A DNA stretch of 64,000 nt from Clostridiales bacterium (lineage in GTDB: Bacteria > Bacillota > Clostridia > TANB77 > SIG350), in the NCBI GenBank assembly GCA_015056545.1, contig SVGE01000004.1:36721-100720 (forward strand), read 5' to 3'. The stretch's first letter is position 1. The number at the start of each line of letters is the position of its first letter. The notes under the pieces were generated by a model, which saw only the letters and a program-made list of their open reading frames with translations, was not told where the DNA came from and made no database searches. Shown here one piece after another: positions 1-5,111 of this stretch. Both the position numbers and the translations under genes were made by a program.

Positions 1-156
1 TGTTTTAACAACTGTACATACACCTCTTTTTTGTGGTCCACCTGCATTTGTAGTTCTTTTTCTTTTTGTATCATATCCTTTTAATAATGCTGGGGCTTTT
101 GCTTTTTTAACTGTAGCTTTTCTTCCTTTTCTTACTAATTGGTTAACTGTTGGCAT
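1..156 (-). CDS. rpsL: 30S ribosomal protein S12, N-terminal 52 aa (gene continues beyond window start)
   Basis: Reverse-strand translation from ATG at 156-154 gives [48 protein letters not shown], which matches the canonical S12 N-terminus. A GGAGGTGAG RBS precedes it. Confidence 0.85.
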
Positions 157-390
157 TTACTCACCTCCCTTCAATATTGTAGCTGCTGCTACTTTAACTT
201 GAACTTTAAACATATTACCTAATTTTTTCATAGATTCAATATATTTAATTTCAATATTCATGTTTTTACACATTTGTTCTAATTCTTGAATTACTATTTT
301 ATCAGCATCTTCTGCAATATATACACATTTAGCATTATTCTTTTTTACTTCTCTTATAGATTGATTAACACCTACTACTTTATCTTGCAA
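157..390 (-). CDS. L7Ae-family ribosomal protein (YbxF/RplGB-like), immediately upstream of rpsL
   Basis: 77 aa. Its position just 5' of rpsL fits the Firmicutes ybxF-rpsL arrangement. It has the VYIAEDAD and KYIESMKKLG motifs typical of the L7Ae/L30e fold, and a GGAGGTG RBS. Confidence 0.7.
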   Translation of the reverse strand: MQDKVVGVNQSIREVKKNNAKCVYIAEDADKIVIQELEQMCKNMNIEIKYIESMKKLGNMFKVQVKVAAATILKGGE

Positions 391-534
391 AATAACACCT
401 CCATAAAATTAATCATAGAACAGTATAAATCATACCATTTATTAGAAGAAATGTCAATAAAAACATGCAAAAAAGTTAGGGAAATAACTATTTTCCCCAA
501 CTTTTTATTCTTTTAATAAAATTAATTAATATTT

Positions 535-1233
535 TTACTGTTTTTTATCAATAAATTGCTTATTTCCGTTATAATATTTATTAAATTCATCCTCTATTAT
601 TCTTAAATAATTTTTATGAACTTGCATTTTAAATCTTTCATTAAAATATGAAGTTTTTACTTCTAATTCATAATATGGACTAATAAACCAAGGTTCACAT
701 AGAATAATGCTAATTATTTCAAAATCACCATCTCCGTAGTTTTCATTCAAATAATCAATTACATATTCTTTTATCTCATTTTGTTTTATTAATTCATTCT
801 TTTCTTGAATATAATGTCTTTGTTTTATAATTAATGTATCAATTCCTATAAATAATATAAATATAACTAATGTAACTAAAAAATATTTAATTATTCTATT
901 TCTCATTGCTTTTTTATCTATTCTTTGTAATACAATATTTTGTTTTTTCAAATTTCTACTTCTAATTATTTTGCATACAATAGTTATTAATAACATAACA
1001 GCATATATGCATATTGGAATAAAAGCAAAAAACATATATATAAATATCCACCAACCGATTTCTAAGCTTAGAAAATTCAAAAAATATCCAAATCCAATAA
1101 ATACATATCCAACAGATATTATTATTGAAGCAATTAATCCTGAAAATGTATTATTTTCTTTATTTCTCATAATTTTAATTAACATATACATTTGAAGTAA
1201 AAATAATAAAACATAATATATAAAAATTAACAT
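535..1233 (-). CDS. hypothetical multi-pass membrane protein
   Basis: 232 aa ORF with several hydrophobic segments and no recognisable motif. It abuts the downstream gene on the same strand. Confidence 0.5.
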   Translation of the reverse strand: MLIFIYYVLLFLLQMYMLIKIMRNKENNTFSGLIASIIISVGYVFIGFGYFLNFLSLEIGWWIFIYMFFAFIPICIYAVMLLITIVCKIIRSRNLKKQNIVLQRIDKKAMRNRIIKYFLVTLVIFILFIGIDTLIIKQRHYIQEKNELIKQNEIKEYVIDYLNENYGDGDFEIISIILCEPWFISPYYELEVKTSYFNERFKMQVHKNYLRIIEDEFNKYYNGNKQFIDKKQ

Positions 1234-1234
1234 A

Positions 1235-2110
1235 TTATATTACTCCTCTCTTAATTTTTACACCATATAAATCTTTTTTCGAGCAGCCAGCTCTTCCTCC
1301 TCCTGCACAGGCACACGCACAAGCGCAACTGCTCGCACAGGCACAACTACTTACGCAACTACTATGATAATGATGATGTCTATCATATCTATCATCATAA
1401 AAACCACTATGACTTGAATAAGGTGTAACTATAACAAATATCGCTACAAATATTATTATTCCAATTGGTATTAATAACATTAAATTATCAATTTGATTTT
1501 GCACCGAATTTGTCTGTTTTAAATCTTTAAAAGCTGTTTTTGCATAATACACTTCTGCTGTCATTTTTTCACTATAATCAAGATTTTGTTTATACCAAAC
1601 TAAATAATTATCAACAACTTTTGTAGCATTTGAATTTTTTATACTGTTGTTATTCCATTTAATAATCATTTCACCTATTTTACATTCATTAAACCACCCT
1701 GGTGTAAATTTAAAATTACAGTTACTTCCGCTTAATGTATAAATATTAGATTGATGCAAAGAAAAGGAAAATTTAATTGTTTCTCCTTGATAGTAATTTC
1801 TATCAAAATAAACTGCTACATAAGACCCGTTATATTTTTCAATTTTCTTTATATTATTTGTTAATGGTTTTAATTCATCAACACTTTTATTAGCAACCCC
1901 TATTTTTACCCAACTAAGTGGTCCTTCACTTGTAGAATCAAGAACAGTCCATTCTAGGTCATACCTAATATCTAATGTCCCATTTATTCTAGGATTAACA
2001 GTTACAATATACTTATTTATATAATCTAAATCTTTTGCATATGTATTAATACCAAATAGAGCTACTAAAAAGGTAACTAGTAAAATAATTTTTATTAAAC
2101 ATTTTTTCAT
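1235..2110 (-). CDS. signal-peptide membrane-anchored protein with a His/Cys/Ala-rich cytoplasmic tail
   Basis: AAAGGAGG RBS and ATG at 2110 (MKKCLIKIILLVTFLVALFG signal peptide). About 200 aa ectodomain, one C-terminal TM, then tail DRHHHYHSSCVSSCACASSCACACACAGGGRAGCS. The start overlaps the stop of the upstream rSAM gene (ATGA). Confidence 0.6.
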   Translation of the reverse strand: MKKCLIKIILLVTFLVALFGINTYAKDLDYINKYIVTVNPRINGTLDIRYDLEWTVLDSTSEGPLSWVKIGVANKSVDELKPLTNNIKKIEKYNGSYVAVYFDRNYYQGETIKFSFSLHQSNIYTLSGSNCNFKFTPGWFNECKIGEMIIKWNNNSIKNSNATKVVDNYLVWYKQNLDYSEKMTAEVYYAKTAFKDLKQTNSVQNQIDNLMLLIPIGIIIFVAIFVIVTPYSSHSGFYDDRYDRHHHYHSSCVSSCACASSCACACACAGGGRAGCSKKDLYGVKIKRGVI

Positions 2111-3495
2111 TTCGTAGCCTCCTTTAATGGACATTTATTAATATTTTTGCAAGAATAGATACGTATCTTTTTACATTTTTCTGAATTCCAAACTTTTTCC
2201 CATTTATCTTGTAACATATTACCTAGTCCCGCTTCATTATTAAGCCAACTTTGGCATGGAACAATCTGTCCATCTGGTGCAATTGCCATATTACTTAAAC
2301 ATGCTCCACAAGAAGGAATATTCATTCCTAATTTTTTAAGTTCATACCCTTGTACCCAACCTGGTGATGTAAAGTCTATTTCCATTAAATTCTCATCTGT
2401 ATATTTTTTGGCTTTAATTAATATTTCTAATAATTCATTTTCTTTTAATTGTGTATCTTTTGACTCTTTATTTAAAGCATTCCCAGTTACTATTAATCCA
2501 GAACAAGTCACATATTTAATACCTAATTCATTTGCAAATTTTAAAGTTTCTTCATAATCTGAATTTAGTTTACAAAGTGGTGTATTAATACTAACATTTA
2601 AATTAGCTTTTACTGCATTTTTAATTCCTTCAACCGTTTTTTCAAAATTATTAGCACCAACTAGCTTGTTATGTATTTCTGGAATATTTGAATATAGAGT
2701 AACTTGAACACTATCTAAACTCGCATCATATAATTTTCTGCAAAGTTCTTCTGTTAATAATACTCCATTTGTATTAAGTCTAGTTATAAACCATTTAGAA
2801 TAATCTATTAATTCAACTAAATCTTCTCTTTTTGTAGGTTCTCCACCTGTAAATGTTAATTGTGGAATATAACTTACTTTGCATTTATCTATTACTTTTT
2901 TCCACTCTTCTGTAGACAACTCTTTCGTTTCAGCATAAACTTGACCTGCAGCATAACAATGTATACATTTTTGATTACAATTCCATATTCCATCCTTTTG
3001 CATAGAACTTATCATTAAATCCATTCTATGTGGTGCCAACATATTTTTAGAATATTTGCTTATAGATAATTGCCCTATATTTACTTTTACTTCTCTTCCT
3101 AGAGCAACATCAGATAATGTTCCAATTAAAATATCCAAATCTATAATAAATCTTTTCTTTTTTGTAAAACAATATATTTTAGACATTCTTATTGATATTT
3201 CTTTTTTTATTTTTTCTATCTCTTCTTGTGTAATTTCTTTTCCTTCATATTCATTAATTTTTTCAATGAACATTGAAAGCATAATAGTCCATGCTAAATT
3301 TATAGGAATAATGTCTTTTCCATTTAATATAACTAAACTAGGTTTAGTTTTTAATAAATTCAATTTAGCAGGAATTAAATGAATTCTTACAACACCTGGC
3401 TCATATGGATTTAATGTTGTATGTAATACTTTATTAAGATTTTTTCTACAATATAAATATTCACTAAGAGTCATATTCTTTCTCCTTTTCGACAT
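2107..3495 (-). CDS. radical SAM protein with C-terminal SPASM/twitch-type Cys cluster and ~170-aa N-terminal extension
   Basis: CNQKCIHC (CxxxCxxC) at about residue 175, GGEP motif (LTFTGGEPTK), and C-terminal CGAC...PC cysteine cluster. Confidence 0.75.
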   Translation of the reverse strand: MSKRRKNMTLSEYLYCRKNLNKVLHTTLNPYEPGVVRIHLIPAKLNLLKTKPSLVILNGKDIIPINLAWTIMLSMFIEKINEYEGKEITQEEIEKIKKEISIRMSKIYCFTKKKRFIIDLDILIGTLSDVALGREVKVNIGQLSISKYSKNMLAPHRMDLMISSMQKDGIWNCNQKCIHCYAAGQVYAETKELSTEEWKKVIDKCKVSYIPQLTFTGGEPTKREDLVELIDYSKWFITRLNTNGVLLTEELCRKLYDASLDSVQVTLYSNIPEIHNKLVGANNFEKTVEGIKNAVKANLNVSINTPLCKLNSDYEETLKFANELGIKYVTCSGLIVTGNALNKESKDTQLKENELLEILIKAKKYTDENLMEIDFTSPGWVQGYELKKLGMNIPSCGACLSNMAIAPDGQIVPCQSWLNNEAGLGNMLQDKWEKVWNSEKCKKIRIYSCKNINKCPLKEATK

Positions 3496-3638
3496 TAATT
3501 TTCATTTTGAGTATATAATAACTATTTCAACATATCAATAAAAATTTATTTAATTCTAAATTTTGTTATAACACTTGAAAATATATCAAATATAATATAT
3601 TTTAATAATATATGAAATAATCATACATGGAGGTTAAA

Positions 3639-5033
3639 ATGAATTTAAAAATAAAAGATATTATAAAGTGTACAAATGGAATATTACTAACTGGAAACGA
3701 AAACTTTGAATGCGTAGACTTTTCTAAAGATACAAGAACAATAAAAAGTGGTGATACATACATTGGAATTAAAGGTGAAAAGTTTGATGGTAATCTATTT
3801 TGGGAAGATGCATTAAATAAAGGTGCAAGTACAGTAATTATAAATAAAATAGATATTCCTAAAGATAAAATAAATAAATACTCAAACAAAAATATTATTC
3901 AAGTAAATGATACTAAAAAAGCATTACTTCAAATAGCAACTGCTAAAAGAAATTTATATAAAGACTTAATAGTTGTCGGTGTAACTGGAAGTGTTGGTAA
4001 AACAAGTACAAAAGATATTATTGCTTCTGTTTTAAGTCAAAAATATACCACATTAAAAACAGAAGGAAATAATAATAATGATATAGGTCTTCCATTTACA
4101 ATTTTAAGATTAAAAGATGAACAAGTTGCTGTAATTGAAATGGGTATGAACCATTTAGGCGAAATAAGTGTACTTACTAAAGTAGCTAAACCAACTATTT
4201 CAGTAATAACTAATATAGGGACTTCACATATAGGGAACTTAGGATCTCGTGAAAATATTTTAAAAGCAAAATTAGAAATTTTAGAAGGAATGGAAAAAAC
4301 AAATTTAGTAATAAATAATGATAATGACCTTCTACATAATTGGTATATAGAAAATAAAGATAAATTAAACATACATACATTTGGAATTAATGAAATATCC
4401 AATTGTATGGCTAATAATATAATAAAAAATGAAAATGCAAGTACTTTTGAATGTAATATTGATGGCATGAAATTTGAAGAAACTGTTCCAATTGGTGGTG
4501 ATGTCTTTATATTAAATGCTTTATGTGCTAGCCTTATAGGTAATATACTTAACTTAAGCAATGAAGAAATTCAAAAAGGTATTTCAACTATTGAACTTAC
4601 TAAAAAAAGAATGGAAATTATTAAATTAAATAATGGTGTAACATTAATTAATGATTCATATAATGCAAGTTTTGAGTCTATAAAAGCTTCTCTTGAATAT
4701 TTATCTAATACAAATGCTAATAGAAAAATTGCTGTTTTAGGTGATATATTTGAATTAGGTGAATTTGCAGAAGAAATGCATAAAAAAGTTGGAAAAGAAG
4801 TTGCAAATAATAATATAGACTTATTATTTGTCATTGGTGAAAATTCTAAATATATTGTAGAAGAAGCAATAAATAATGGCATGAACGAACAAAATATTTA
4901 CTATGCAAAAAATAAAGAAGATTTAATCCAAAAACTAAAAAAAGAAATGTCTGATGGTGACTGTATATTATTTAAAGCTTCAAATGGAATGAAACTTTTT
5001 GATATAGTTGAAAAATTAAAACAAGAAATATAA
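3639..5033 (+). CDS. murF: UDP-N-acetylmuramoyl-tripeptide--D-alanyl-D-alanine ligase
   Basis: GGAGG RBS then ATG at 3639. P-loop VVGVTGSVGKTSTKD and Mur ligase domain order are present. Confidence 0.85.
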   Translation: MNLKIKDIIKCTNGILLTGNENFECVDFSKDTRTIKSGDTYIGIKGEKFDGNLFWEDALNKGASTVIINKIDIPKDKINKYSNKNIIQVNDTKKALLQIATAKRNLYKDLIVVGVTGSVGKTSTKDIIASVLSQKYTTLKTEGNNNNDIGLPFTILRLKDEQVAVIEMGMNHLGEISVLTKVAKPTISVITNIGTSHIGNLGSRENILKAKLEILEGMEKTNLVINNDNDLLHNWYIENKDKLNIHTFGINEISNCMANNIIKNENASTFECNIDGMKFEETVPIGGDVFILNALCASLIGNILNLSNEEIQKGISTIELTKKRMEIIKLNNGVTLINDSYNASFESIKASLEYLSNTNANRKIAVLGDIFELGEFAEEMHKKVGKEVANNNIDLLFVIGENSKYIVEEAINNGMNEQNIYYAKNKEDLIQKLKKEMSDGDCILFKASNGMKLFDIVEKLKQEI

Positions 5034-5111
5034 CAAGAAAATGCACAATAATATATATTTTTATCTTGACTTTTCTCAAAAAAGATATATAATATATGTG
5101 CATTTATTTAT

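Follow-up and report, generated by a model that had tools for sequence, protein, structure and literature searches.

A translationally coupled gene pair of gut and rumen anaerobes: a radical SAM/SPASM-type enzyme and a membrane protein with a conserved Cys-Ala tail

Radical S-adenosylmethionine (SAM) enzymes with a SPASM domain that are paired with peptide substrates have yielded pyrroloquinoline quinone (PQQ), mycofactocin, sactipeptides and ranthipeptides. The SPASM domain is a seven-Cys motif, CX9-15GX4C ... CX2CX5CX3C ... C, which holds two auxiliary clusters. Sactisynthases such as SkfB and CteB combine an N-terminal recognition element with a twitch or SPASM domain and form Cys-S-to-C-alpha thioethers in the precursors of peptides that are made on ribosomes and modified after translation (RiPPs), while SuiB, PqqE and MftC act on Lys-Trp, Glu-Tyr or Val-Tyr peptides, in which they form C-C crosslinks. 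The RiPP recognition element (RRE) is a PqqD-like winged helix, made of a three-stranded sheet and three helices, that binds the precursor peptide. Here we describe a gene pair from a Clostridiales bacterium (contig SVGE01000004.1 of assembly GCA_015056545.1, positions 36,721 to 100,720, a stretch of 64,000 nucleotides that is called the window below), in which the gene of a radical SAM/SPASM-type enzyme overlaps that of a membrane protein with a tail rich in Cys and Ala. An earlier reading of the same DNA, called the original prediction hereafter, had proposed an enzyme-substrate or maturase relationship between the two products. The features on which the argument rests are as follows, in window coordinates.

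2107-3474, minus strand: radical SAM/SPASM-type enzyme, 455 aa (Pfam domains and start assignment)
3070-3474, minus strand: N-terminal domain of the enzyme, residues 1-135, possibly RRE-like (AlphaFold2 [AF2] model and conservation)
2956-2979, minus strand: CX3CX2C radical SAM cluster motif (C166, C170 and C173 in the 455-aa numbering), read from the sequence
2131-2310, minus strand: C-terminal SPASM/twitch-type auxiliary-cluster region, residues 389-448 (Pfam SPASM match and conserved Cys)
2107-2110, minus strand: ATGA start/stop overlap of the enzyme and membrane-protein genes, read from the sequence
1235-2110, minus strand: type-I membrane protein, 291 aa, with a signal peptide, a beta-sandwich ectodomain, one transmembrane (TM) helix and a Cys-rich tail predicted to be cytoplasmic (AF2 model)
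1427-1489, minus strand: TM helix, residues 208-228 (AF2 helix; hydrophobic stretch LMLLIPIGIIIFVAIFVIV)
1280-1363, minus strand: Cys cluster SSCVSSCACASSCACACACAGGGRAGCS, residues 250-277, encoded by a GC-rich tract, with 8 Cys in 28 residues
1265-1321, minus strand: family motif CACACAG[GS]GRAGCSxKD[FL]Y, residues 264-282 (alignment and loci)

The overlap announced by the original prediction is readily seen, the ATG of the membrane-protein gene (2110-2108) sharing two nucleotides with the TGA stop codon of the enzyme gene (2109-2107). A Shine-Dalgarno sequence, AAAGGAGG, is found at 2118-2125, 7 nt upstream of that ATG. The longest open reading frame (ORF) of the enzyme gene spans 2107-3495 (462 aa), and the ATG of its residue M8, at 3474, is preceded by an AAGGAG Shine-Dalgarno sequence 9 nt upstream. 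Since, in addition, the homologues and the gene call of the Joint Genome Institute (JGI), on a metagenome contig from sample 3300024269, have a length of about 455 aa, the coding sequence was taken as 2107-3474, and M8 is most likely the true start.

The two genes are conserved together in both directions. Starting from the membrane protein, 79 loci were collected from GTDB species genomes, and an orthologue of the enzyme adjoins the membrane protein in 77 of them (46-73% identity in the tblastn segments), almost always immediately upstream and on the same strand. The carriers include Clostridia, Lachnospiraceae, Gemmiger/Faecalibacterium, Bacilli, Acholeplasmatales/Anaeroplasma and Eggerthellaceae. 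Of the two loci without such a neighbour, one is at a contig edge (L083) and the other has a 5'-truncated membrane-protein gene (L025). Starting from the enzyme, 80 metagenome loci with enzymes of 49-63% identity were gathered; ten of these end too early, and the membrane protein lies directly downstream in all 70 that have room for it. Where a related locus extends far enough to hold the tail, it nearly always has one. The order of the genes is reversed in one locus (L069), where the membrane-protein gene comes first. In three others (L054, L057 and L066), a single enzyme gene has a gene for a tail-bearing protein on either side. The two proteins are paralogues of about 425-440 aa, both with intact CACACAGGGRAGC tails; the gene of the first is at the canonical place downstream, that of the second is divergently transcribed.

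Nothing else appears to belong to this conserved unit. All-versus-all clustering of the neighbouring ORFs in 81 loci revealed no third conserved gene, transporter, protease or regulator, the other large clusters being antisense shadow ORFs inside the enzyme gene or cases of lineage-specific synteny (e.g., fusA). Similarly, no small precursor ORF upstream of the enzyme gene is conserved across 158 loci. The sole conserved neighbour of the enzyme is thus a membrane protein of 300-530 aa, rather than the short precursor that adjoins the enzyme in RRE-dependent RiPP systems.

A few loci deserve separate mention. L025 (5998-6816) is the only locus with room for the enzyme gene in which none is found; its membrane-protein gene, which lacks the signal peptide and begins near residue 38, directly adjoins the end of a gene for a 1912-aa surface protein. 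The tail is intact, and the gene is possibly a decaying remnant. No plasmid was matched by the module. Carriage by phage was considered for a single match labelled as phage (L165, MT837216.1, 'UNVERIFIED Bacteriophage sp.', 7415 bp), a GC-rich faecal contig on which the pair is found at 2479-3912 and 3912-5087, overlapping at the stop and start codons. Its neighbours are a translational GTPase-like ORF (of EF-G/RF3 type by eye), a YitT-like ORF and an AAA-ATPase gene, and the contig has the look of a piece of chromosome of Oscillospiraceae type, not of a phage. The pair is also present on a contig binned as 'Candidatus Saccharibacteria' (L056, CAZPCQ010000004.1). As all other carriers are gut organisms of Bacillota type or Eggerthellaceae, a binning error is more likely in this case than a true occurrence in the candidate phyla radiation.

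A conserved motif forms the distal part of the membrane protein's tail. The protein ends in ...SSCVSSCACASSCACACACAGGGRAGCSKKDLY, and the tail reads in full DRHHHYHSSCVSSCACASSCACACACAGGGRAGCSKKDLYGVKIKRGVI, exactly as quoted in the original prediction, although the latter had counted about 9 Cys in 30 residues. Five of the 8 Cys are in C-A-C arrays. In an alignment of 28 sequences, C264, A265, C266, A267, C268, A269, G270, G272, R273, G275, C276, K279, D280 and Y282 are invariant. Among the 2551 homologues found, the best 120 all end in ...C-A-C-A-C-A-G-[G/S]-G-R-A-G-C-S-[K/R]-K-D-F-Y-G-T... or a single-residue variant thereof. The motif is also found in the loci of Lachnospiraceae, Gemmiger/Faecalibacterium, Anaeroplasma, Acholeplasmatales and Eggerthellaceae, whose ectodomains are about 30-40% identical to that of the query. 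Thus, the distal motif is near-invariant while the ectodomains of orthologs share 30-50% identity. That positions other than Cys are conserved (R, K, D, F/Y) suggests a site of protein recognition rather than metal ligands alone. In contrast with the distal motif, the juxtamembrane stretch rich in Gly, Tyr, His and Arg varies between species. Species also differ in how many proximal (S/H/R)-S-C-A units they have, with some having a single one and others up to about five. The His-rich stretch to which the original prediction drew attention is real in the window protein, but the homologues do not conserve it. The link between enzyme and membrane protein had been made to depend on the gene pair and the tail being found in other genomes, and it comes out strengthened, the pair being kept in nearly all genome loci and in every metagenome locus with room, and the tail in each of the best 120 homologues.

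A search with the tail alone by phmmer against 1.84 billion representatives returned 135 matches, which correspond to the same family, to fragments or to apparent chimeras, and no convincing second architecture in which the tail would be a module on unrelated proteins. In four sequences, P0273 (602 aa), P0276, P0344 and P0243, the N-terminus of the enzyme or an unrelated DnaJ N-terminus is joined to the tail region. These are probably chimeras of assembly or gene calling, or deletion variants, and a genuine fusion of enzyme and tail may be among them.

The product of 2107-3474 is, on its domain matches and core motif, a member of the radical SAM superfamily. It matches the Pfam families Radical_SAM (PF04055; E 3.9e-21, 76 bits for a cutoff of 29.5), SPASM (PF13186; 35 bits for a cutoff of 21.5, residues 396-455 in the 462-aa numbering) and Fer4_12 (PF13353). 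The three Cys of the CX3CX2C motif are invariant in all 71 orthologues aligned, and the core aligns to those of SkfB, MoaA, viperin and anSME. Homologues number 6729; among the best 120, one is a copy 100% identical to the window's gene, the others being 63-68% identical and mostly 454-458 aa long. While the radical SAM identity originally predicted is borne out by the Pfam matches, classification with the NCBIfam models placed the enzyme in no family: 57 models match and none comes near its curated cutoff, the best being NirJ2 (105 bits for 500), with SkfB (55/300), StsB (55/625), not_ScfB or 'ScfB-related' (54/855), WgkB (100/650), PqqE (85/381) and the mycofactocin maturase (86/265) further examples. 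By these scores, the enzyme is outside every curated family of sactipeptide or ranthipeptide maturases that was matched (SkfB, StsB, ScfB and others).

The C-terminal region of the enzyme is Cys-rich. Over the 71 orthologues, and in the 462-aa numbering, C308, C396 and C414 are invariant and C331, C399, C441 and C455 are kept in at least 90%, giving up to seven conserved Cys outside of the core. The SPASM half-motif CX9GX4C is present (C399...G409...C414). The canonical CX2CX5CX3C is not found in the C-terminus of these orthologues, which have instead C441 and C455, 13 residues apart. The region could be of twitch type, holding one cluster, or a SPASM domain of non-canonical form.

The first 135 or so residues are also strongly conserved, with the signature H-T-T-L-N-P-x-G-P-G-V-V-R-I-H-L-x-P ... 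L-N-G-x-D-I-x-P-x-N-x-x-W, and a comparison of 16 diverse orthologues shows H18, T20, P23, P26, G27, P35, N51, G52 and P57 to be invariant. In the AF2 model, this domain consists of strands at 17-21, 29-34, 46-50 and 54-58, followed by helices at 60-74, 83-100 and 106-124, and this order of strands and then three helices is that of RREs. The radical SAM core begins at residue 165, compared with residue 118 in SkfB and 105 in CteB, and the N-terminal domain occupies relative to the core the position of the RRE in these two enzymes. By structural resemblance, it is thus a possible peptide-recognition (RRE-like) domain. An assignment by sequence was attempted as well, and the comparison of the domain profile with the PDB and Pfam gave noise alone (ATP synthase gamma, MarR, MRG).

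According to its AF2 model, the membrane protein has an N-terminal signal helix (residues 2-18), a beta-sandwich (residues 29-190) with predicted local distance difference test (pLDDT) scores above 90, and, after the TM helix, a disordered tail (residues 229-291). This topology agrees with the single TM segment and the location of the tail that had been proposed; the tail is predicted to be cytoplasmic and thus accessible to the enzyme. The best 120 homologues are 39-52% identical and about 300 aa long. In longer variants of 400-530 aa, the TM helix and the tail are separated by an additional cytoplasmic insert, an arrangement that fits a cytoplasmic tail. In some long variants of Lachnospiraceae type (P0260, P0314, P0288 and P0294), this insert contains a zinc ribbon (CPxCG...CxxCG), followed by a conserved Y-R-Y-G-x-x-P-N-T-Y-V-R-V-H-V-V-N-V-P segment, which makes for a more elaborate cytoplasmic part in such members.

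The membrane protein of the window belongs to no Pfam or NCBIfam family, and none of the 2551 homologues carries a Pfam domain. The N-terminal domain of DUF2207 proteins (PF09972) gives weak, sub-threshold matches in 9 of 28 family members (best E 1.9e-4) and a further one in P0257 (15.8 bits for a gathering score of 24.4), and the window protein itself gives no PF09972 match at E <= 0.1. With Foldseek, the ectodomain resembles the lumenal domain of OST1/ribophorin type and the N-terminal beta domain of M1 aminopeptidases. Matches to NprX, FixS and A2M_recep were all marginal and were set aside. DUF2207 proteins share with the membrane protein an extracellular N-terminal beta-sandwich, one or more TM segments and a low-complexity, Gly-rich cytoplasmic C-terminus, although every PF09972 match in the family is below the gathering score. 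To our knowledge, neither a Cys-Ala tail nor an obligatory radical SAM partner is a feature of DUF2207 proteins.

Among the described systems, the sactisynthases of SkfB/CteB type come closest. By sequence, the nearest PDB chains are SkfB (E 7.6e-11), then GDGT-MAS, for the core only, PqqE and CteB. By fold, SkfB and SuiB are the first and second full-length matches, with viperin, anSME, MoaA and PqqE among the core-only matches. The window enzyme resembles SkfB and CteB in its order of domains, with a possible recognition-type domain at the N-terminus, a CX3CX2C core and a Cys-rich C-terminal region for putative auxiliary clusters, and the likeness extends to the Cys-rich nature of the substrate or candidate substrate. 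However, identity is only about 18%, and these enzymes act on a short leader-core peptide, whereas the candidate substrate is here the tail of a membrane protein of 300-530 aa, with no protease or transporter gene conserved beside the pair. The SuiB/PqqE/MftC group shows an N-terminal topology similar to the one modelled here, of strands and three helices, and its genes for enzyme and substrate form compact units; PqqE is matched by both sequence and fold, and SuiB by fold. In the ranthipeptide system of Clostridia, SCIFF (six cysteines in forty-five) and its maturase ScfB also form a two-gene unit widespread in anaerobic Bacillota, in which a radical SAM/SPASM maturase is paired with a Cys-rich substrate. 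The SCIFF peptide is soluble, has about 45 aa and shows Cys spacing of CxxxC type, in contrast to the C-A-C-A-C-A-G-G-G-R-A-G-C tail of a membrane protein. Finally, anSME and QhpD offer a precedent for radical SAM/SPASM enzymes acting on the Cys of a complete protein. The substrate of QhpD is a small soluble subunit; anSME differs from the window enzyme in having no N-terminal domain of RRE type. A formylglycine motif of anSME type (C/S-x-P/A-x-R) was sought in the tail and is absent from it.

We propose that the pair is a self-contained maturase-substrate module of gut and rumen anaerobes, in which the tail is docked and its Cys segment modified, most likely by thioethers, and we give this reading a probability of about 0.55. 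The first gene would encode a cytoplasmic radical SAM enzyme with an RRE-like N-terminal domain, a CX3CX2C core and a SPASM/twitch-type C-terminus with one or two auxiliary Fe-S clusters. The second, translationally coupled to it, would encode a membrane protein of type I, its beta-sandwich, similar to that of DUF2207, being outside the cell and its disordered tail in the cytoplasm. The enzyme would dock on the invariant G-R-A-G-C-S-x-K-D-F-Y motif and the C-A-C-A-C-A that precedes it, and would use a 5'-deoxyadenosyl radical to modify the Cys/Ala/Ser segment. Intramolecular Cys-S-to-carbon thioether crosslinks, of sactionine or ranthionine type, would be the most likely product, since SkfB and CteB, which are the nearest relatives of solved structure, make such bonds. 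As no protease or exporter is conserved, the tail, once modified, would probably remain part of the membrane protein and be neither cleaved nor exported.

Several features of the locus point to direct binding of the enzyme to the tail and to the tail as its substrate: the co-conservation of the two genes in both directions, their translational coupling, the invariance, at non-Cys residues as well, of a disordered cytoplasmic tail, the resemblance of the enzyme to peptide maturases, the loci in which one enzyme gene accompanies two tail-bearing paralogues, and the fact that no other candidate is conserved. On the other side, co-conservation is evidence of a functional link, not of which partner acts on which. 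Tight C-x-C repeats beside segments rich in His, Gly and Tyr also fit a metal-binding tail, and the known radical SAM thioether systems use short precursors, usually beside proteases or exporters, neither of which is found here. The N-terminal domain profile matches neither the PqqD Pfam family, which represents the domain used by SuiB, PqqE and MftC, nor any RRE-containing PDB chain. The analogy to two-cluster sactisynthases is loose, as the C-terminus of the enzyme is devoid of CX2CX5CX3C, and the AF2 model of the enzyme is of moderate confidence (mean pLDDT 68.7). All these points count against the proposal.

The main alternative, possible though on balance rather unlikely, is that the tail is not modified and instead binds a metal or an iron-sulfur cluster in the manner of a metallothionein. 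It might then recruit the radical SAM enzyme to the membrane, or its thiols might serve as cluster ligands or as an Fe/S donor for the modification of another substrate, such as a lipid or an envelope precursor. C-x-C repeats are a hallmark of metal-thiolate proteins, and the tail, as judged from its sequence, has the high Cys content in C-x-C and C-x-x-C arrays by which metallothionein-like segments are recognized. In many homologues His-rich runs are found just upstream (e.g., HHHHHH in P0060-P0087), and the zinc ribbon of some long variants is in the same cytoplasmic region. In addition, with only 5-7 conserved Cys in its C-terminal part and no CX2CX5CX3C, the enzyme might have a cluster completed by a partner thiol, as a thiol of the substrate or partner reportedly does in CteB. 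For the version in which the substrate is a lipid, the second-best PDB sequence match, GDGT-MAS, is a lipid-modifying enzyme, although the match is limited to the core. However, metal binding does not require the invariant non-ligand residues (G-R-A-G, K-D-F-Y), and the His-rich part is not conserved. The RRE-like domain and the relatives SkfB, SuiB, PqqE and CteB point to peptide modification, and no gene for another candidate substrate is conserved. The two explanations are also compatible, since a modified tail could still bind metal.

A second alternative is that the membrane protein is the precursor of a secreted RiPP, its tail, after modification and cleavage, leaving the cell in the form of a small thioether peptide. 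The resemblance of the enzyme to RiPP maturases is in keeping with this idea, as are sub-threshold matches to a YxzE-like putative bacteriocin family on the TM helix and tail of 13 of 28 family members (best E 1e-3). The latter reach 18 bits where the cutoff is 40, and they run over the TM helix and low-complexity sequence, so that membership in this family was rejected. In the 81 loci, no protease or exporter is conserved near the pair, and the tail, on its cytoplasmic side, is attached to a large ectodomain whose good conservation would be pointless for a leader. Such a secreted product therefore appears very improbable.

The maturase-substrate proposal takes the tail as a fixed motif, whereas the original prediction had described its DNA as a microsatellite of imperfect TGYGCN repeats, at about 65% GC in a genome of about 27%, in which slippage could vary the number of Cys-Ala repeats. 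The tract is indeed GC-rich, albeit with somewhat different values: 60% GC in 1291-1350 and 58% over the 84 nt of the Cys cluster, against 25.3% in the window. The microsatellite itself did not hold up. Tandem Repeats Finder, run on 1200-1500 with a minimum score of 30, detected no repeat in the tract, and the longest perfect tandem tract in the Cys-encoding DNA of the window has only 10 nt (AGGAGGAGGA, in Gly codons). Synonymous codons alternate along it (TGT GCC TGT GCG AGC AGT TGC GCT TGT GCG TGT GCC TGT GCA). When the same peptide was back-translated in simulations with the codon usage of the window, the GC content was about 50%, so that most of the GC richness is accounted for by the Cys, Ala and Gly codons alone. 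The longest tandem tract had a median of 16 nt in these simulations, the real tract being the less repetitive (P = 0.09). The GC excess comes from rare Ala codons, GCC and GCG making up 4 of 7 in the tract and 6% in the window (P = 4e-4). This pattern may be a sign of selection against slippage, of slow translation or of recent horizontal acquisition.

Comparisons between relatives lead in the same direction. Among 183 close pairs, defined by ectodomains at least 92% identical, the Cys cluster is the same in 182, and the single pair that differs (P0007/P0038, ectodomains 95% identical) does so by one S-I-S-C-A unit. That pair, the varying count of proximal (S/H/R)-S-C-A units between species and perfect tandem tracts that reach 31 nt in some orthologues (median 14 nt over 116 distinct orthologous Cys-cluster DNAs) are what slippage would have in its favor. 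As the distal CACACAG[GS]GRAGC motif is invariant across phyla, close pairs almost never differ and orthologous tracts are short, the idea of slippage or phase variation is largely refuted, and the tail is a conserved motif rather than a variable tract.

In the window, the pair is part of a series of three closely spaced minus-strand genes, preceded by a promoter-like site (3538-3510) and followed by a terminator-like hairpin (506-470), the remaining features being the following.

3510-3538, minus strand: promoter-like site TTGATA-17-TATACT, upstream of the enzyme gene (consensus scan, 10 of 12 matches; a pattern match only)
535-1233, minus strand: third gene of the operon, for a polytopic membrane protein of 232 aa; it begins 1 nt past the stop codon of the membrane-protein gene
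470-506, minus strand: terminator-like hairpin at the end of the three-gene operon, a 15-pair stem followed by a T run

The promoter-like site falls within the region 3475-3626, divergent from murF. No homologue of the third gene was found by tblastn in the 83 other loci fetched by then, and its product matches no Pfam or NCBIfam family; it is outside the conserved module and looks like a lineage-specific passenger of the operon. On one side the module is flanked by L7Ae-like, rpsL, rpsG, fusA and tuf genes (window positions 157-390 and 1-150, minus strand; locus L001), and on the other by murF, dusB and a gene of the ftsW/rodA family. The fusA gene recurs close to the pair in 14 of 81 loci.

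The enzyme and its partner have so far received little notice. Source databases label the enzyme 'radical SAM protein' or 'radical SAM/SPASM domain-containing protein', and they have no specific name for the membrane protein, which is a 'hypothetical protein' in two JGI entries. Neither protein belongs to a specific curated family of Pfam or NCBIfam, and no description of the tail motif or of the gene pair was found in the full-text literature. Pairs of radical SAM/SPASM maturases and substrates are known; a membrane-anchored, full-length substrate with an invariant tail, without export genes, is not. The present pair stands apart in three respects: its candidate substrate is the tail of a membrane protein, its module has no export machinery, and it is without a curated family or a literature in spite of its wide occurrence. 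We raise, tentatively, the possibility of an unrecognised class of modification, in which a full-length membrane protein of type I would have its cytoplasmic tail permanently remodelled by a radical SAM enzyme, by way of the invariant motif C-A-C-A-C-A-G-G-G-R-A-G-C-S-x-K-D-F-Y. This would leave a crosslinked or cofactor-like structure tethered to the membrane, which might be a new metal or redox center. The system itself is widespread in Bacillota of the human and animal gut and their wall-less relatives.

Sequences of the pair number in the thousands and belong to lineages that are abundant in gut and rumen, including Lachnospiraceae, Faecalibacterium/Gemmiger and uncultured Clostridia and Bacilli, and with two genes and a peptide of 60 residues the module is amenable to a direct test. 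If the tail is modified, radical chemistry akin to that of RiPPs would reach integral membrane proteins, and DUF2207-like proteins would gain a first functional handle.

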